This document shows positions 34,621-63,986 of a DNA stretch of 64,000 nt, in pieces. Positions within the stretch are counted from its first letter, which is position 1. Every line of letters starts with the position of its first letter. The notes beneath the pieces are model-generated. The model worked only from the letters and a program-made list of their open reading frames with translations. It had not been told where the DNA came from and did not search any database. The DNA is from Candidatus Anderseniibacteriota bacterium. GTDB lineage: Bacteria; Patescibacteriota; Andersenbacteria; UBA10190. Both the position numbers and the translations under genes were made by a program. The stretch spans positions 98,875 through 162,874 of the forward strand of contig JBBDOX010000016.1 of the NCBI GenBank assembly GCA_040876835.1. The letters run 5' to 3'.

Positions 34621-35040
34621 CTGTAGAAGCTTCCGAGCTTCCCCGTTGACCTCCGCCACGTGTCCCCAGAGCAGCTCCAGCGCTTCACTGGACACCAACT
34701 CTGGCCGCTCGAAGCGCATCAGGAAGGCCCCGATAGCTGCTGCGATGACACGGCGATACTCATGTTTCGGCTCGTCGCCAAACTCACTATCGCGCACGAG
34801 CGACTGGGCGTAGGAGATGCTCCCCAGGAGCTCGTCCAGATCATCCTCCGCCTTCAAATCTACCCAGTCTTTCGCCAGGACTCCAATGCGTGCCTGCTGC
34901 TCGACTGGGAGGCTAGCGAAGGCGATATGGCACCGTGCAATATCGCCCACCCCTTGAGAATGGATCCAGCTGTACACCTTTCTGATCGCAACACGAGTTT
35001 CCGCCTTGAGCGCCATTTTTCCCTCTTGCTTTCCTGACAC
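34606..35040 (-). CDS. Hypothetical protein (144 aa) in a G+C-enriched islet
   Basis: ORFs are present on both strands of this G+C-rich segment. The minus-strand ORF has the more protein-like composition. It overlaps the upstream convergent gene by 15 nt and lies 3 nt from the divergent gene 35044-36126. Confidence 0.3.
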   Translation of the reverse strand: MSGKQEGKMALKAETRVAIRKVYSWIHSQGVGDIARCHIAFASLPVEQQARIGVLAKDWVDLKAEDDLDELLGSISYAQSLVRDSEFGDEPKHEYRRVIAAAIGAFLMRFERPELVSSEALELLWGHVAEVNGEARKLLQLLIK

Positions 35041-35043
35041 GGA

Positions 35044-56883: not shown

Positions 56884-59749
56884 AGCCATACAACTTCTTC
56901 GCGATAACCGAGTAGGCCTTGCGCTGATCGTTATTGCCTGGATTATATTTTTTAGTCCCATTCTGTCGGGGAAATATGTTTACTTTCTCGATGACTTAAA
57001 AATCATTTACTACCCCTTGGAGTATGAATATGCCCAGGCTCAGGAGAACTGGCAGCTACCTGTGTGGAGTAATACCTTTGGATTTGGGCAACCGCTTATC
57101 GCCTGGGGTCAACTCGGCTTCCTTACCCCCATTCACCTTCTCCTACGGCTTATAGGAATTGCTCCCCTCAATCTTCTACAGGTGTCCGTTGTGTCCTACT
57201 TTTTAGTAGGGCTACTGGGCATGTACACCTTTTTCCGTCAACGCCTCTTTGATCAGCTACCATCAGCCGTGGCTGCTGTTATCTTCGCATTCTCCGGTTT
57301 TGCGATTGGGCATTTGAATCATGTGAACTTTTATACTTCCACCATGCTACTGCCCTGGCTACTGGTGTCAGCATATGCATTACTTCAGAAACCAACCCTG
57401 GGAAGATCTCTTGTTCTTGCCCTAGTTGCCGCTGCCACCACTGTCAGCGGTCAGCCACAGATAGTACTATTTGTCTTTATTGCCGCAGCGGGAGTGAGTC
57501 TGGGACTGCTTATCGAAAAATATGCGCTACAGATTAAAAAGCAAAGAAAACGTATTGCGAAACTAGTATCCTTGACGATCCTGGCCGGCGGCCTGGGCCT
57601 TGTGCTGTCAGCCTTTGCTATTCTCCCTTTGTATGAATTTATTCCGCTTACCGAACGAGCTGAGCCGCTTCCGCCGACAGAGCGTCTGGAATTTAGCTAC
57701 CCGCCCCTCCATGCTGTTACGCTGGTATTACCGTATTTCTTTGGTAATCACGAAAACTACTGGGGGGCTAAGGGCTTTCAGGAACTGGCGGCATTCACGG
57801 GCCTGATCCCGCTATTCCTATCTGGAGCAGCCTTAGTGCGCTGGAAAACTCACAAACCCGAGCGAGTAGTAGGAATACTGTTCATCGCCCTGGCAGTCAT
57901 TATGGCTCTGGGTCGACATTCTTTCCTCTACGCCTACCTGGTCGATCGTCATATTATAACCTCCCTGGGCGTCGCCGGACGATTCGTATTTTTCTTTGAC
58001 CTGGGAATCATGCTGCTGGCCGCGTCCGCGCTTCAGGATCTACAAACTTCAAAGAAGAAGTATGCTTTGCTGGCATGCATAACTGGTCTTCTTTTTACTG
58101 CCGGTATTCTCACCCCCTTCTTCATTTACATGCAGGGCACACCGGATGTCTATACCCGCTTTATTTCTATAGCTTCATCTGCAGACGCTACTTGGATTGC
58201 CGCGCTTCTTGGACTACTGATTATTCCTGCCTACGTCCTTGTGGCATACAGGCAACGATTGGTGAAACCTGTATCGGTGATGATAAGTATCATCGCCACA
58301 GCCACTCTCCTTACATACTCATGGAATTACAATCCGCTTACTTACCGCTCTGCCGCAAACGCTTCAGTTATCTTTGCTGACAACCTCAAACAATACACCA
58401 CCGACAGTGTCACTCCTGCCCGCCTGTACTCTCGTCCCGATCTGATCCAAAATTCCTCTATCACAAAGCATACTGATCCAATTTCTCCTGTCTTTGCTGT
58501 CTACCAGCCGTTTGATATTGAACTAGACAATCTCAGCTGCTTCCGACTGCCTATGCAGTCAGGACCCGAAGCAGTTGGCGAGATTCACCTGGGGTTGCAC
58601 GAAGACCCTCTAGCACAGCCCATTCGCACCCTGACACTTGATAGCGCTGAAGTAGACGCCATATTTGAGGAAAAAGTATGCTTCAATCCGGTTTCAGACA
58701 GTGCCGGTAAACAATACTGGCTCTCAATTACCAGTGATTCCGTCAGTGGAGTAACTCTCTTTTATCAGGACACGGAGCAATCGCAACCTCAAGTATACTT
58801 TGTTCGTAAAGCAGACCCCACAGTCGAGCAATGGCGGCAATCTCAAAAAAACGCGGTGGTAATCGCTGAACCAATCTTCCCCAAACAAATTGACGAGGAA
58901 GCGATTCTTCTAGCCCGTCACTTAAACGTACCTGCCGACAGCTCGAGTGCCCGCTGGATTGGTGCGTTATCTCTGCGTGACTACCGTGCCTTCATCGAAT
59001 TCTTCTTTGCTAATGACAGGGAGCCTATTGACGGAGATGGTCTACATGTTATCCAGCGCTACCGTAATATCCTGAATATGGTTGGAGTTACTCACCTAGC
59101 CCAGATACTCCCCCTCACCAACGAGGACAGCATGTTAAGTAATAACTTCGAGTTAACCGATGAGGTGGCTGTAAGTAACAAGCGCGCCCGCCTATATACC
59201 AATCCACAGGCTTACCCTAAAGCCTTTATGGTAAAAAACGCCGTTTGGAAATCAGCCGCAGACGAGACCCGTGATCGCATGCGTTCATCAGCATTTGATC
59301 CCCAAAAAGTTGTATATATCAGCGGCCCCAGACCCCCGACTGAGCTTGTTAACCAGGACTGGGAGGCAGCTGAAGAGCTGGCCTTAGCCGACACCTCTTC
59401 TCTGACATATACGGCTACTGTTGATCAGTATACCCCCACTCAAGTTGATCTTACCGTTCAAACTGACGAAGACGCCTGGCTGGTGATGACCGACTCCACC
59501 ACTCCGCAATGGCATACAACGATTAACGAGGAGCCCGCTGCACAATATGTTGCGTACTCTGTTTTTAAAGCCGCTTTCATTCCGGCCGGAACCCAGAAAG
59601 TATCCTTCACATATTCCTCCCCGGCAATTGAGTTATCGAAAAACCTAACATTGACGGGCCTAGCTGCCGTTGTCCTTTTATCCGGCCTGACTCTTTATCT
59701 CAGCAAACGCGATTCTTCCTCCGACACCAAGACACCGCCAACTGCATAG
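56870..59749 (+). CDS. YfhO-family-like GT-C membrane glycosyltransferase (about 960 aa)
   Basis: 'FFSPILSGKYVYFLDDLKIIYYPLEYEY' resembles the YfhO N-terminal loop. A polytopic core is followed by a roughly 450-aa C-terminal extracytoplasmic domain. The start is ambiguous between TTG at 56834 and ATG at 56870. Confidence 0.5.
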   Translation: MIRTKAIQLLRDNRVGLALIVIAWIIFFSPILSGKYVYFLDDLKIIYYPLEYEYAQAQENWQLPVWSNTFGFGQPLIAWGQLGFLTPIHLLLRLIGIAPLNLLQVSVVSYFLVGLLGMYTFFRQRLFDQLPSAVAAVIFAFSGFAIGHLNHVNFYTSTMLLPWLLVSAYALLQKPTLGRSLVLALVAAATTVSGQPQIVLFVFIAAAGVSLGLLIEKYALQIKKQRKRIAKLVSLTILAGGLGLVLSAFAILPLYEFIPLTERAEPLPPTERLEFSYPPLHAVTLVLPYFFGNHENYWGAKGFQELAAFTGLIPLFLSGAALVRWKTHKPERVVGILFIALAVIMALGRHSFLYAYLVDRHIITSLGVAGRFVFFFDLGIMLLAASALQDLQTSKKKYALLACITGLLFTAGILTPFFIYMQGTPDVYTRFISIASSADATWIAALLGLLIIPAYVLVAYRQRLVKPVSVMISIIATATLLTYSWNYNPLTYRSAANASVIFADNLKQYTTDSVTPARLYSRPDLIQNSSITKHTDPISPVFAVYQPFDIELDNLSCFRLPMQSGPEAVGEIHLGLHEDPLAQPIRTLTLDSAEVDAIFEEKVCFNPVSDSAGKQYWLSITSDSVSGVTLFYQDTEQSQPQVYFVRKADPTVEQWRQSQKNAVVIAEPIFPKQIDEEAILLARHLNVPADSSSARWIGALSLRDYRAFIEFFFANDREPIDGDGLHVIQRYRNILNMVGVTHLAQILPLTNEDSMLSNNFELTDEVAVSNKRARLYTNPQAYPKAFMVKNAVWKSAADETRDRMRSSAFDPQKVVYISGPRPPTELVNQDWEAAEELALADTSSLTYTATVDQYTPTQVDLTVQTDEDAWLVMTDSTTPQWHTTINEEPAAQYVAYSVFKAAFIPAGTQKVSFTYSSPAIELSKNLTLTGLAAVVLLSGLTLYLSKRDSSSDTKTPPTA

Positions 59750-61740
59750 CGTAGCCGTATAGCAAGATTACCTTCTCTTACGTCACTGTCAGTAATACTT
59801 CCGCTTTGCGAAAAGAACATGTTTGAGTTGCGATACTTATGCTCACTAGTGTATCGGACTGTTGGAGCGTTTCCTGTTGCAGTACCAGTAGCATATATTT
59901 CTACAAACACCGCTTGCCCGCTTCGATTGATCGCTTGCGGCAATGGCAAGGTCATCCATTCATCGTTTGCAATATTGCTAACGGGTACCTCCCAACGATG
60001 AAGCAGGTGACCCTGGAGCGCATCTTTAAGTTCGGCAACAAATACGCCCGAGTCAGCTCTGCCGCTGAATGTCGGTACAAGCACATCAATACCCCCGAGT
60101 TGTTCGTGCTCGACTGCTATTTCCTGCCCTACTCTAACCGCTGTTGTAAGCTCGCCCACATGCCGTTCATATGACCGCTGCTCATATACCCAGGCATATT
60201 CCTTACCAGAAATCATAGCGACAAATACTGGCGTTCGTTTGCTGTAATACTGTTCAACCATCTCCGTAGCTGGATGATCAGCAGCTCGCCCGAACATGTT
60301 GCGATACAGCACGACGAATTGATTCTGGGGATGTTCATGGGCGCCGTAGTCCAGAACCTGGGCGGAAGTATATGCCTGGAGCTCCTGCGGATACCACGAA
60401 GCTACAACAGCCTCAGGATGATTTTCCGAAAGCCACAAGCCCACCTGATCCAACCCCTCTCCCCAGCCCAGTTCCTGACTTAGGTTATCGGGGAATATGG
60501 GGTTACTGTACGCAATCTCGTACGGATGGTACTGCCAAACCACTGTTGCGAGATATATCACAGCAGCGCTTATCGGTACTACCGGAGCTATGCGCCAGCG
60601 TTTAATAGCCATGGTGCCAATGCCAAGAAGAGCAGTGGCCGCCAGTATATCCAGCACCGGGTACACTGGCAAAATGTACCGGTCACCTTTCTTTGCTCCC
60701 AGAGTCATCATGAGCACAAAAAATATCACGAACGATACGAGCAGCAGTACCGGGCGACTATCTCGCCCAGCCAACCCCTCTTTTGCAATACGCCAGATAA
60801 TATACAAGACGGCTAGAGTCGCAAATATTAGCGTTACTGGGGTAGTGCGCGTCACCAGTGCTGCCGGATAATGCCAGGGATTTAAAGTATATTCCTCGGC
60901 CATGTGGTGAGGTGTTACGGCAGCAATTGTTAAGTCTCGTCTAATAAGGTTAGCGTTGCCTTCGGGGTTAGGGACGAATATTAAAGCCGGCCAGGTAAAG
61001 AGAATGAGCAATATAATCATAAGCAACCACGCTACCAGGTCACGACTACGTGCCAGCAAAACACGCTTTAAGAATATCTTTTTGTTCTCATACACCAATA
61101 CTGTCAGTAGGAAAAACGGGATGATAAATATGGCAGGAGCCTTAGTGAGAATAGCCGCAGCTGACAACACCCCCGAGATCACCAGCCACCGGCGGGAATA
61201 ACCTTCTTGCGCGTAGATGATGACTGATAAGGCGGCTAATACCAGTAGGCTCGCCAGCAATGCATCCACATGAGCCACACGTGAATATCCAATCAGAAAA
61301 GGATTTAGTGCAATCAGTATCCCAGCAGTACCAGCCAGCAGCTGTGAAATAGACAGACGACGAAGAAAAATATATATCAGTGGAACTGCCAGTGCATTCA
61401 CGAGCGCAATGGGAAATTGAGCTGCCTTTACAAAATGGATGATATTCGCCAGTGAGAACGGCACGTGGCCGATCATCATTTTAACCGCAATAGCTGTGCC
61501 CGACAGCCACATAGTTGTGACCCCAGGATGCGTTGTCTGCAACATGTCATTAAAACGCAGGTCTTTGAACGCTCGCACGAACTCATAGGAGCGTATCATC
61601 CAGTTTTTTTCATCCGCAGTCAGAAAGGACCCAAGATCAAGCAGACGCGGGAGTGCTGCAATGATAAAAATTCCGATGACAATAAGAATGTCACGTTTAT
61701 GAGTGACGTAAAAACGATGGATATGAGTCCGTACCTGCAT
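59695..61740 (-). CDS. GT-C-fold glycosyltransferase, ArnT/PMT_2-like (paralog C, with an extra C-terminal domain)
   Basis: 681 aa. 'LTADEKNW', 'HPGVTTMWL', 'ALNPFLIGYSRVAHVDALL', 'QELGWGEGLDQVGLWLSENHP'. It overlaps the convergent gene by 55 nt. Confidence 0.5.
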   Translation of the reverse strand: MQVRTHIHRFYVTHKRDILIVIGIFIIAALPRLLDLGSFLTADEKNWMIRSYEFVRAFKDLRFNDMLQTTHPGVTTMWLSGTAIAVKMMIGHVPFSLANIIHFVKAAQFPIALVNALAVPLIYIFLRRLSISQLLAGTAGILIALNPFLIGYSRVAHVDALLASLLVLAALSVIIYAQEGYSRRWLVISGVLSAAAILTKAPAIFIIPFFLLTVLVYENKKIFLKRVLLARSRDLVAWLLMIILLILFTWPALIFVPNPEGNANLIRRDLTIAAVTPHHMAEEYTLNPWHYPAALVTRTTPVTLIFATLAVLYIIWRIAKEGLAGRDSRPVLLLVSFVIFFVLMMTLGAKKGDRYILPVYPVLDILAATALLGIGTMAIKRWRIAPVVPISAAVIYLATVVWQYHPYEIAYSNPIFPDNLSQELGWGEGLDQVGLWLSENHPEAVVASWYPQELQAYTSAQVLDYGAHEHPQNQFVVLYRNMFGRAADHPATEMVEQYYSKRTPVFVAMISGKEYAWVYEQRSYERHVGELTTAVRVGQEIAVEHEQLGGIDVLVPTFSGRADSGVFVAELKDALQGHLLHRWEVPVSNIANDEWMTLPLPQAINRSGQAVFVEIYATGTATGNAPTVRYTSEHKYRNSNMFFSQSGSITDSDVREGNLAIRLRYAVGGVLVSEEESRLLR

Positions 61741-61768
61741 GGCGCCAGTGTATCAATATTTGGTTAAT

Positions 61769-61810
61769 AAAAAAATGAAGCCCCGGGTCACAAGGTGCGA
61801 CGCGGGGCTT
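61769..61810 (-). terminator. Rho-independent terminator (minus strand)
   Basis: aagccccg (61778-61785) and cggggctt (61803-61810) form an 8-bp GC-rich stem with a 17-nt loop. On the minus strand it is followed by UUUUUUU (plus-strand A-run at 61769-61775). Confidence 0.45.
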
Positions 61811-61811
61811 A

Positions 61812-61855
61812 CTGCAGGAGAAGGAAATGAACGATCAAATGTATTTCTCCTGCAG
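61812..61855. repeat. Perfect 11-bp inverted repeat: ctgcaggagaa (61812-61822) and ttctcctgcag (61845-61855), with a 22-nt spacer
   Basis: Read directly from the sequence. It lies adjacent to the terminator hairpin. Confidence 0.8.
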
Positions 61856-61856
61856 G

Positions 61857-62460
61857 AATGGTTCCGAAAGAAGAGAGCTCTCCGCCTGTTGCACAGAGGG
61901 CGTGTCGGGTGAGTTTAGCCCGCACAGAGGCCAAAGCTGGTGCACGACAGGCGGAGAGCCGACAGAGGAAGGCCTCCACCCGCCTGCAAAGCACTCCTGA
62001 CAGGAGACACTTCGTGCCGGATGTACTTTGCGGCGACCCACACTAGACGCGGGTCACAGCGGGTGGAGGGTTCGCGACGGGGAGCTCCTGGCGAAAGATC
62101 TTCCCGACGCTATCTGGAAAGACATAGACTCAAGACGTCCACACATGCCGAACAAGTCCGGCAAAGCTTGCTTGGTAGGCCCCCTCAGAACCCTAGGCAA
62201 GCTGTCTTGTCCTATCCTCCTCGAGGAGAGTTAGAGTTACATCTTCCCAAAGTACGTGCGTGATGCAGAGCGCATCACGCGGGCCGGCGGCGCCGGTCAG
62301 TCGCTATTGATGCTCCCACGGCCAGCGTACGACACACGCATTTTGGGGGTCTCCTCTTCCTCTGAGAAATTGAAAGTGGCTAGCTTCTCACCATGAGAAG
62401 CTGCCTGACAAAGGTATAATTTGTTTACACCTAGACTCAGGAATTGTCAATAATGCCGAC
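61857..62460. other. G+C-enriched non-coding region rich in nested helices; candidate structured RNA of unknown class, or decayed remnant
   Basis: No credible ORF (only Arg-rich, SD-less frames). Nested complementary pairs include ctccgcctgt (61880-61889) with acaggcggag (61947-61956), caggcgg with ccgcctg, and agcttctc with gagaagct (62382-62402). Confidence 0.3.
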
Positions 62461-62495
62461 TTACAGTACTAATATTTACCCCTAATAAGCCATTA

Positions 62496-63281
62496 TTATA
62501 TCCCCACTATGCGGAAATGCGACAGTTCAGGGCAAAGGTCCCCAGGAGCTGTTCCTCCTGGTGTTTCCAGGCGCCTATAATGCACCAGCCACTTTGCCTG
62601 TTTAGCATCATCTTCTGGCAGCACAGTCAGTTTTGCATTCGTGTGACTGACATATTGAAGCCGATTCCAGATATGAATGTTTTCACTATATACCGGCCCC
62701 GCATCTTCTAAACATCGGATCAACGACCGGGTGTCAGCCAGGTCAGCTGCAGTATTTGTCCGATTTCCTAACGAAAAATCGTTTACACTACCACCGGTTT
62801 TAACGAACGGTATAAATACTCCAAACAACGTCCAGGCAGATAATCCCACTGTCAGTGTAATTACAAGTATTGTTCGAACGGAGGTTAGTTTGATGAATCT
62901 CTCGACGACTGCCCCCACACCCAACCCTGCCAGAATCCACAACCCCAGAACAAACATAGTGAAGTACCGCAAATTGAGACGATCGATTATATAAAGCAAT
63001 ATACCCAGGTGCAGCATTAGTCCCGCAATCCACAACCATATAGCCTTACGGCGCCACAGCAATACAATTGCCAGCATTGCCAGAGCAATAACAATCCAGC
63101 TAATAATCTGCGTAACTGGAGGGGTGAGCTCTAATCCCGTGTAGTTAGCTATATAGGAAGATCCTGATACATATAACATCCACGCCTCTTTGAAAGCCTG
63201 AGCCCGTTCAGAGAACAGTTCCGCAACCGCACCGGGGTCCCCCTGATCTTCTTTGTATAGTGCCAGGACTACAAACTGCAT
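62496..63281 (-). CDS. Polytopic membrane protein; probable C-terminal half of a split PMT_2/ArnT-like GT-C gene
   Basis: 261 aa. It is in the same frame as 63294-63986, separated by a TGA and 12 nt. Confidence 0.4.
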   Translation of the reverse strand: MQFVVLALYKEDQGDPGAVAELFSERAQAFKEAWMLYVSGSSYIANYTGLELTPPVTQIISWIVIALAMLAIVLLWRRKAIWLWIAGLMLHLGILLYIIDRLNLRYFTMFVLGLWILAGLGVGAVVERFIKLTSVRTILVITLTVGLSAWTLFGVFIPFVKTGGSVNDFSLGNRTNTAADLADTRSLIRCLEDAGPVYSENIHIWNRLQYVSHTNAKLTVLPEDDAKQAKWLVHYRRLETPGGTAPGDLCPELSHFRIVGI

Positions 63282-63293
63282 TGCGAAACCAGC

Positions 63294-63986
63294 TCAGAAT
63301 CCTACCGCAGCTTCAACGAAGCTAACACCAAAAAATTTCAGCTGAAACTTAACTCCCTCTTCCCTTTGATCGAGTGCATCTTTCACAAACACTCCAAGCC
63401 CGACAAGACCAGCAGCAGCAAGTGTCGCCAGGAATATAATGTGGTTAGCCAGACCCAATCCACCCGCAAGACCAGCCCACAACCATTTACGCTTCCAGTT
63501 GCGCAATAGAATATTTAGTATCAAGAATGCAAAGAAAGGAAATAGCGTAATCGTCCAGCCCAGTCGCTGATACAGAATATATATTGGAGTAAACGTAAGA
63601 GCCACGAGGCCATATAACCCCGCCCAGCGACCAAACAGTGTGCGCAATACATATTCGGCCAGCCAGAACGTTGCAAACGAGAAGAACAGCATCGGTAGCC
63701 GTATCGCCAAGGTCGTATAGCCAAACAGCAGGATAAATGGAACCCGCAGGTAATCTATCAGCGGTCCGATGTATGACCGCTCGCCTGTAACAGTGATGCC
63801 TTCGCGGGTAAGCAGCTCGTACACATTTTCCCCCTCCGATCCCTCATCCCCCATCAGGCCAGGGGCACTCGAAATCCACAGCGAATTCATCACTACAAAA
63901 AGCGCAAACACTGCCCAAACGGCTCGACGATACCACATATCTGGAGGGTTCTGAGAGTCCATATCTTCTTGTATACTACAACACAT
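63294..63986 (-). CDS. Polytopic membrane protein; probable N-terminal half of a split PMT_2/ArnT-like GT-C gene
   Basis: 230 aa. The first-loop 'MGDEGSEGENVYELL' DE motif is followed by multiple TM and basic loops. Confidence 0.4.
   Translation of the reverse strand: MCCSIQEDMDSQNPPDMWYRRAVWAVFALFVVMNSLWISSAPGLMGDEGSEGENVYELLTREGITVTGERSYIGPLIDYLRVPFILLFGYTTLAIRLPMLFFSFATFWLAEYVLRTLFGRWAGLYGLVALTFTPIYILYQRLGWTITLFPFFAFLILNILLRNWKRKWLWAGLAGGLGLANHIIFLATLAAAGLVGLGVFVKDALDQREEGVKFQLKFFGVSFVEAAVGF

Follow-up and report, generated by a model that had tools for sequence, protein, structure and literature searches.

An Orphan Candidate for a Large Structured RNA: a Hairpin-Dense, Lineage-Specific Spacer between Two Glycosyltransferase Genes in an Andersenbacteria Genome

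Large structured RNAs and other hairpin-rich elements in bacteria

Large structured non-coding RNAs are rare in bacteria, and the genomes of the Candidate Phyla Radiation (CPR) are very small; 0.7 kb of non-coding DNA retained in such a small genome calls for explanation. A stretch of this kind occupies positions 61741 to 62495 of the 64-kb piece of Candidatus Andersenbacteria (CPR/Patescibacteria) DNA analyzed here (the window, positions 1 to 64000), where it forms the spacer between two minus-strand glycosyltransferase genes. We call the body of this spacer the element and ask how it compares with described systems.

The large RNA classes OLE, GOLLD, ROOL, raiA, and HEARO resemble the element in size (0.6 to 0.8 kb), in being non-coding and G+C enriched relative to the genome, and in combining a multidomain predicted fold with a discrete, terminator-ended unit and a sporadic distribution. 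The element differs from all five in having no covariance-model match even at an E value of ≤10. Furthermore, these classes were defined by hundreds of covarying representatives, whereas no homologs of the element were found, and its helices are longer and more perfect than theirs, with no definable conserved junction motifs. Selecting long G+C-rich intergenic regions is an approach for enriching structured RNAs (PMC6429828, PMC8632094). The element fits this criterion exactly, being the longest intergenic region of the window and having a G+C content well above the genome mean, and like the unnamed or orphan candidates that emerge from such searches (PMC6429828, PMC8632094, PMC11109978) it lacks a class for want of representatives. 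However, those pipelines require homologs before a motif is named. Repetitive extragenic palindromic (REP) sequences and bacterial interspersed mosaic elements (BIMEs), miniature inverted-repeat transposable elements (MITEs), and palindromic elements derived from IS200/IS605 insertion sequences offer a further parallel, namely, a cluster of stable palindromes in a spacer beside a terminator, lineage-specific presence, and possibly a short flanking direct repeat. In contrast to these, the element is single copy in 71 kb, lacks terminal inverted repeats, and consists of 0.7 kb of non-repetitive, G+C-rich rather than A+T-rich sequence with branched domains instead of one repeated unit.

We regard the element as an orphan candidate and not as a demonstrated large RNA. 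The reading that we tentatively favor, with slightly less than even confidence, is that of an insert specific to this lineage from which a long and very stable structured RNA, capped by a terminator, is transcribed on the minus strand. If such an RNA were functional, it would represent a new class in a poorly explored phylum. Its present value is modest and is that of a well-delimited, strand-assigned candidate with clear module boundaries.

A G+C-rich gap with a large excess of hairpins

A first-pass annotation of this DNA had called the spacer the only long non-coding stretch of the window. It is the longest gap there that is free of open reading frames (ORFs), and an independent gene call on a Logan contig that contains it found zero genes within it. 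The annotation had described the ORFs of the spacer as all Arg-rich and without Shine-Dalgarno sequences. They are indeed Arg-rich and short, at most 107 amino acids (aa), and one 14-codon minus-strand ORF departs from the second part of the description in having an AGGAG 9 nt upstream (Table 1). The G+C content, estimated by eye at about 60% versus about 50% in the flanking genes, was measured in 300-nucleotide (nt) windows as 0.55 to 0.61 over positions 61750 to 62349 versus 0.45 to 0.50 in the flanks; it is 0.539 for the whole gap and 0.483 for the window.

The spacer contains five perfect local inverted repeats of at least 9 nt (Table 1). Three of these had been noticed in the annotation and were all recovered, two of them longer than first described: a pair read as 10 bp (61880-61889 with 61947-61956) in fact spans 13 bp, and the stem of an 8-bp hairpin at 62382-62402 has 9 bp. 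The mean number of such repeats in 1,000 dinucleotide shuffles of the spacer was 0.26, no shuffle reached five, and each of the 81 other 755-nt tiles of the window has zero to two. The feature is real and statistically striking, and its excess of hairpins is far beyond chance.

Folding statistics point in the same direction. Relative to shuffles, the minimum free energy (MFE) of the whole gap had z scores of -8.8 and -10.0 (minus strand) and of -6.6 and -5.8 (plus strand), compared with absolute values below 2 for six other stretches of the window longer than 150 nt and without ORFs of at least 150 aa. (One of these six, 34621-35043, is actually a 144-aa ORF.) In 200-nt windows across 61701-62400, most z scores lay between -2 and -5, the window at 62001 being the one weaker exception; the background was -0.2 ± 1.2. 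Elsewhere in the window, the lowest score, -5.3 on the minus strand at 60001-60200, falls inside the coding sequence of the downstream glycosyltransferase gene and was obtained with 15 shuffles only.

Four modules had identical MFE and centroid structures, namely, a Y-shaped three-way junction (the Y-domain), a long hairpin, the 61812-61855 hairpin, and the terminator. The robust part of the modeled structure is a string of local domains rather than a global fold.

Strand, modules, and limits of a putative transcript

A GC-rich terminator hairpin with a U-run on the minus strand, reported in the first-pass annotation at 61769-61810, is present in this form: its stem (61778-61810) is followed by CA and then by U7 (61775-61769), on the minus strand only. 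With a G+C-rich stem-loop and a U-run on the minus strand, it has the features of an intrinsic (Rho-independent) terminator. Its 3' arm and T-run are similar to those of the terminator that occupies the corresponding position in L014 (GGGGCTTyhTTTTTTTAT), one of the sequences fetched for comparison (L001, L002, L004, etc., of which L001 is the Logan contig with the spacer itself), and the terminator may therefore predate the insert. The sequence TTTTTTTAT is common to L001, L004, and L014.

In the predicted fold, the minus strand has 25 G-U pairs and the plus strand 18, and the MFE of the minus strand is lower by 18.6 kcal/mol. Several helices of the branched domain depend on G-U pairs that are possible on the minus strand only. 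The minus strand is therefore favored by the position of the terminator, the larger number of G-U pairs, and the lower MFE. The apical part of the long hairpin carries two copies of a 9-nt direct repeat, CCUCUGUGC.

Near the upstream end of the spacer, a perfect TTGACA (62450-62445) and, 17 nt further on, a weak -10-like TAAACA (62427-62422) form a candidate promoter for the element itself, by analogy with the boxes that open the long gaps of L004, L006, and L014. The promoter scan left this site uncalled because its -10 lacks the final T. The element may form a 3' trailer to the upstream gene, stand as a unit of its own, or do both.

We infer from these features that the element is transcribed, that transcription uses the minus strand, and that the RNA fold rather than DNA palindromes is what matters. 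In the proposed sequence of events, an insert of about 0.65 to 0.7 kb, extending from roughly 62470 to 61812 and flanked by two envelope glycosyltransferase genes, would be transcribed from a TTGACA-type promoter of its own, by read-through out of the upstream gene, or in both ways. Its RNA would form two short hairpins, then a branched domain in the middle, the Y-shaped three-way junction, the long hairpin, and an 11-bp hairpin, and would stop at the strong intrinsic terminator (61810-61769). This terminator would insulate the downstream gene, whose own extended -10 promoter would give rise to a leaderless mRNA. Our guess is that the product is a stand-alone or 3'-trailer structured RNA stabilized by its fold, which might be a selfish passenger or might regulate the glycosylation cluster locally.

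Table 1. Features of the spacer, of its flanks, and of the corresponding gaps in other genera. Positions are those of the window unless prefixed with the label of a fetched sequence.
Feature	Position	Strand	Remarks
Spacer under study	61741-62495		minus-strand genes on both sides; longest ORF-free gap of the window
Upstream gene	62496..63281	minus	ORF; C-terminal part of a PMT_2-type glycosyltransferase
TTGACA, perfect -35-like box	62445..62450	minus	46 nt past upstream stop
Hairpin	62382..62402	minus	9-bp perfect stem, 3-nt loop; -13.3 kcal/mol, z -3.3
14-codon mini-ORF MRVSYAGRGSINSD	62297..62341	minus	AGGAG 9 nt upstream
Hairpin	62258..62280	minus	9-bp perfect stem, 5-nt loop; -16.4 kcal/mol, z -4.8
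Perfect 12-nt palindrome CTCCTCGAGGAG	62217..62228	none	read from sequence
Branched domain of short helices	62119..62208	minus	P4-like words on opposite strand
Y-shaped three-way junction	61973..62069	minus	12-bp closing stem and two arms; -61.2 kcal/mol, z -7.3
Long hairpin	61876..61960	minus	14 bp, 5 bp, and apical helices; -47.3 kcal/mol, z -5.9
Hairpin	61812..61855	minus	11-bp perfect stem, 22-nt A/U-rich loop; -19.3 kcal/mol, z -6.3
Intrinsic terminator	61769..61810	minus	stem 61778-61810, G+C-rich, 14-15 bp; -23.2 kcal/mol, z -6.2
Extended -10 promoter TGATACACT of GT39 gene (predicted)	61747..61755	minus	6 nt before ATG (61740)
Downstream gene	59695..61740	minus	ORF, ATG at 61740; 681-aa GT39/PMT-family glycosyltransferase
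Inverted repeat	61812-61822 / 61845-61855		11 bp perfect (14 nt at 93%)
Inverted repeat	61877-61889 / 61947-61959		13 bp perfect
Inverted repeat	61973-61983 / 62059-62069		11 bp perfect
Inverted repeat	62258-62266 / 62272-62280		9 bp perfect
Inverted repeat	62382-62390 / 62394-62402		9 bp perfect
Imperfect 12-nt direct repeat	GTATCAATATTT 61750..61761; GTACTAATATTT 62466-62477		copies bracket insert
Gap upstream of GT39 ortholog	L014:9470-9982		513 nt; z -5.0; promoter box to terminator
Gap upstream of GT39 ortholog	L035:5694-6320		627 nt; z -5.2; no promoter box, no shared terminator motif
Gap upstream of GT39 ortholog	L006:5281-6000		~620 nt; z -3.8; promoter box to terminator
Gap upstream of GT39 ortholog	L004:993-1310		318 nt; z -3.0; promoter box to terminator

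Two further sites lie on the other strand. A plus-strand promoter-like site inside the element (62393-62420; ATGAGA-16-TATAAT, 10/12 matches) is followed about 200 nt downstream by a terminator-like site (62615-62630), and judging from sequence this pair could yield an antisense RNA of about 200 nt against the upstream gene, at its 3' end. Promoter- and terminator-like sites of this kind are no more numerous than in shuffles.

Homology searches and points against a structured RNA

Several results weigh against the RNA reading, and we gather them here. The covariance models of Rfam 15 gave zero matches at gathering thresholds in the whole window. Such a scan of 61741-62495 had been recommended as a check in the first-pass annotation, and at an E value of ≤10 the region 61600-62600, which includes this stretch, gave only hairpin-level chance matches of at most 21 bits against thresholds of 42 to 117. 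Because no Rfam family matched, RNase P, tmRNA, signal recognition particle (SRP) RNA, and 6S RNA are excluded as far as covariance models tell, as are OLE, ROOL, and GOLLD, which had been put forward as candidate classes, and likewise HEARO, raiA, group I and II introns, riboswitches, and T-boxes.

Searches for homologs were equally negative. The element was not found by nhmmer --max or blastn in the neighborhoods of GT39 orthologs from about 35 related genomes (about 0.6 Mb), and a covariance model of the 205-nt segment with the Y-domain and the long hairpin had no match in the same set with filters either at default or off. Blastn against phage and plasmid collections gave no match. Exact-word scans gave none in genome_contigs with a 22-mer, one chance match in metagenome_contigs with a 20-mer, and none or chance matches in viral_contigs with four words. 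Of the three outcomes that the annotation had named as refuting its proposal, two were thus observed, namely, the lack of an Rfam match and the lack of conservation in the relatives examined. Because homologs were not found, covariation is lacking, as is evidence that selection acts on the fold; homologs with compensatory changes, by which a conserved structured non-coding RNA is recognized, are absent from the collections searched.

The closest relative, L002, apparently comes from the same sampling project, judging from its adjacent run accession. Its GT39 protein is 69% identical to that of the window, its spacer is only 139 nt long and lacks the element, and alignment is confined to about 25 nt following the stop and to the final 18 nt or so ahead of the ATG. 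Either the element was inserted in this lineage or replaced other sequence there, or it was lost in that of L002. In L002, a 45-codon predicted membrane ORF (L002:294-431; MNSGVTLEYYPRILWWAVSITGAGILLAGAWYLGLRRFISSTLK) overlaps the stop of the upstream gene, and in the window this ORF has shrunk to three codons (ATG GCT TAT TAG; 62487-62476, minus strand).

The structure itself supplies further arguments of this kind. Long-range pairings consist of a 9-nt pair 384 nt apart and 13 nt at 85% 217 nt apart, and by our estimate the long-range helices of the gap are about as frequent as expected by chance. The perfect stems of 9 to 14 bp are Watson-Crick only, which is commoner in young palindromes than in old functional RNAs. 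As many as 162 of about 250 predicted pairs are possible on either strand; folding alone therefore gives only a weak strand preference and leaves room for a role at the DNA level. The candidate -10 box of the element is poor. Finally, the upstream glycosyltransferase is encoded in one frame (62496-63986) that is split by an in-frame TGA (63294-63296, minus strand) into parts of 230 and 261 aa. At this position, a conserved Trp is found in the orthologs of L014 and L042 (VGFWAGF), and at the sequence level the TGA looks like a nonsense mutation or a split gene. Recoding of UGA in the split gene was considered and rejected, as TGA is the normal stop of 9/31 long ORFs in the window. The premature stop suggests a decaying locus.

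The description of the spacer as a candidate large structured RNA thus stands in part. It is supported by single-sequence evidence, namely, the G+C content, the folding z scores, the defined modules, the strand-specific terminator, and the TTGACA box, and it lacks an Rfam match and conservation.

Several specific identities were tried and rejected. The first-pass annotation had noticed words like the two halves of the RNase P P4 helix, with the wrong spacing and pairing. The words are real, as AAGTCCGG (62154) and CAGAACCC (62186) lie 32 nt apart on the plus strand and are unable to pair. Our RNase P test took P4 to be formed by a CR-I word, GAAAGUCCGGGC, and a CR-V word, ACAGAACCCGGCU, more than 200 nt apart. 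The plus strand of the element resembles bacterial RNase P RNA in having AAGUCCGG and CAGAACCC and differs from it in spacing, as the P4 words of that RNA are more than 250 nt apart. A bacterial RNase P RNA was rejected given the 32-nt distance, a 3' word without CCGG, a strand opposite to that of the terminator, and the lack of a model match.

No tRNA or transfer-messenger RNA (tmRNA) gene was found by ARAGORN in the entire 64-kb window, also when introns of up to 900 nt were allowed, in agreement with the first-pass annotation of the spacer. Group I introns are common in tRNA genes of Patescibacteria, and group II introns are reported to be absent from this phylum (PMC13011429). The Intron_gpI model had no match at an E value of ≤10. 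A group IIC intron inserted after a terminator was rejected because of the wrong strand, the absence of GUGYG, and the lack of any group II model match at an E value of ≤10. A hammerhead-like reading of the Y-domain fails on a junction without an unpaired core, and a TIGR- or CRISPR-like array or a diversity-generating retroelement fails on the absence of any direct or tandem repeat array in the element.

A probable leaderless promoter ahead of the downstream gene

The 30 nt from the U-run to the ATG of the GT39 gene read TTATTAACCAAATAT-TGATACACT-GGCGCC-ATG. The TGATACACT box is identical in L002, lies outside the element, and marks its 3' limit. Among 30 GT39 orthologs, 16 have TAnnnT 5 to 9 nt before the ATG, with a sharp peak of offsets at 6 to 7 nt, and 9 of those 16 have the TGn extension. 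The box is kept even in orthologs whose upstream gap is only 12 to 56 nt. From this pattern in the sequences we infer independent transcription of the GT39 gene into a leaderless mRNA. Given a conserved leaderless promoter of its own, the GT39 gene would not have the element as its leader, and the terminator would insulate it.

The full TGnTAnnnT, 6 to 8 nt before the GT39 ATG, occurs in the window and in L002, L004, L022, L025, L035, L039, L042, and others. In this family, a Shine-Dalgarno sequence is absent and the box often stands directly after a terminator T-run. The GT39 family in Andersenbacteria is thus apparently expressed leaderless, from a conserved extended -10 promoter directly after a terminator.

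The same slot in other genera

Most GT39 orthologs have an upstream gap of 0 to 250 nt. Four other genera have a long gap in the same slot, filled with sequence that is unrelated and significantly structured (Table 1). In three of them (L014, L006, and L004), the gap starts with a near-consensus TTGACA or TTGACT and a good -10 box and ends in a terminator whose T-run runs into TTTTTTTAT ahead of the leaderless promoter. Neither sequence nor covariance-model similarity was detected among the bodies of L014, L006, L004, and L035 and the element, and the only motif common to the long gaps of the five genera is the terminator T-run. Because the slot repeatedly holds different structured transcription units, transcription of the element becomes more plausible; homology is not established by this observation.

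The G+C-rich gap of L006 also contains a tRNA-like gene (L006:5618-5689) whose anticodon loop is aberrant (ARAGORN: tRNA-???, anticodon "tt"). This gene lies upstream of the GT39 ortholog and beside a 38-codon ORF with a strong AGGAGG.

A bolder reading, which we consider distinctly unlikely, would have the element encode a large structured non-coding RNA (~0.65 kb) of a new class, in a CPR bacterium with a reduced genome. In its wider form, this reading would make the GT39 slot in Andersenbacteria the seat of a fast-evolving promoter-to-terminator RNA family whose bodies (L001, L014, L006, L004, and L035) have diverged beyond recognition and which acts on the envelope-glycosylation cluster.

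Alternative explanations

The main alternative, in our view rather unlikely, is an inert relic of foreign or mobile DNA, an option that the first-pass annotation had also named. The relic would be either a non-autonomous element or a piece of the genome of a phage, plasmid, or host; its palindromes would have arisen, and would act if at all, at the DNA level, and any transcript would be incidental read-through halted by a terminator that was already in place. Presence in this lineage only, with a short spacer and a membrane ORF in L002, would fit such an origin, as would a G+C content 6 to 12 points above that of the genome, long perfect stems that can fold on both strands, the in-frame TGA at a conserved Trp codon of the adjacent gene, and the filling of the slot by unrelated sequences in different genera. 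The imperfect 12-nt direct repeat around the insert could be a target-site duplication; however, such a repeat is at chance level by our own estimate (p ~0.1). Moreover, the element has no terminal inverted repeats, there is no second copy in the 64-kb window and the 7 kb beyond it, and the gene calls include no integrase or transposase nearby. It has no phage or plasmid match, no match in the viral word scan, and no recognizable coding remnant, and random foreign DNA would not reach a z score of about -9.

Decayed or unrecognized protein-coding sequence, small-protein genes included, is improbable. The spacer does have ORFs of up to 107 aa and the 14-codon ORF with its Shine-Dalgarno-like AGGAG, and the same slot holds the 38-codon ORF of L006 and the 45-codon membrane ORF of L002. 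However, a six-frame pseudoprotein of the spacer had zero matches at an E value of ≤10 among 5.8 billion proteins, and the 107-aa ORF matched one meaningless repeat protein (E value of 3.7e-4) among 1.84 billion representatives. The spacer is therefore not a recognizable pseudogene. The six-frame query revealed no spurious ORF called on a homologous element elsewhere and no protein similar to the 14-codon mini-ORF, which is probably fortuitous. No gene was called in the spacer, its Arg-rich ORFs overlap on both strands, as is usual in G+C-rich non-coding DNA, and coding sequence does not produce a z score of about -9.

A cis-acting leader of the GT39 gene, that is, a riboswitch or attenuator controlling read-through of the terminator 30 nt before the ATG, is quite improbable. 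The order of promoter-like box, structured RNA, terminator, 30 nt, and ATG is the layout of a classical attenuator, and the terminator-arm sequences GUGACCCG and CCCGCGUC recur in the Y-domain, so that an alternative pairing could be allowed. Nevertheless, the conserved TGnTAnnnT stands 6 nt before an ATG without a Shine-Dalgarno sequence and is found also in orthologs without any leader, 650 nt far exceeds known leaders, no Rfam riboswitch or T-box model matches, and L002 lacks the element.

An assembly chimera or other artifact, suggested by the abrupt G+C step and by the metagenome-assembled genome that is the source, is scarcely credible, because the spacer recurs with 755/755 identity and unchanged flanks in the Logan assembly of SRR27977662 (L001:9246-10000) and both junctions lie within sequence homologous to L002.

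The neighboring genes and the window

The same Logan assembly also encodes an identical GT39 protein, and a protein 100% identical to the product of the downstream gene is present in a Candidatus Andersenbacteria metagenome-assembled genome. Very large membrane proteins (PMT_2 and YfhO-like) and methyltransferases predominate in the window as a whole, which suggests an envelope-glycosylation island. Far from the spacer, at 2836-2901, a 33-nt unit, CTTTGTAGCCATCCTGAGTGTCTCCATATCATC, is duplicated in perfect tandem and followed by a partial third copy; the 400-nt stretch in which it lies has no long ORFs.

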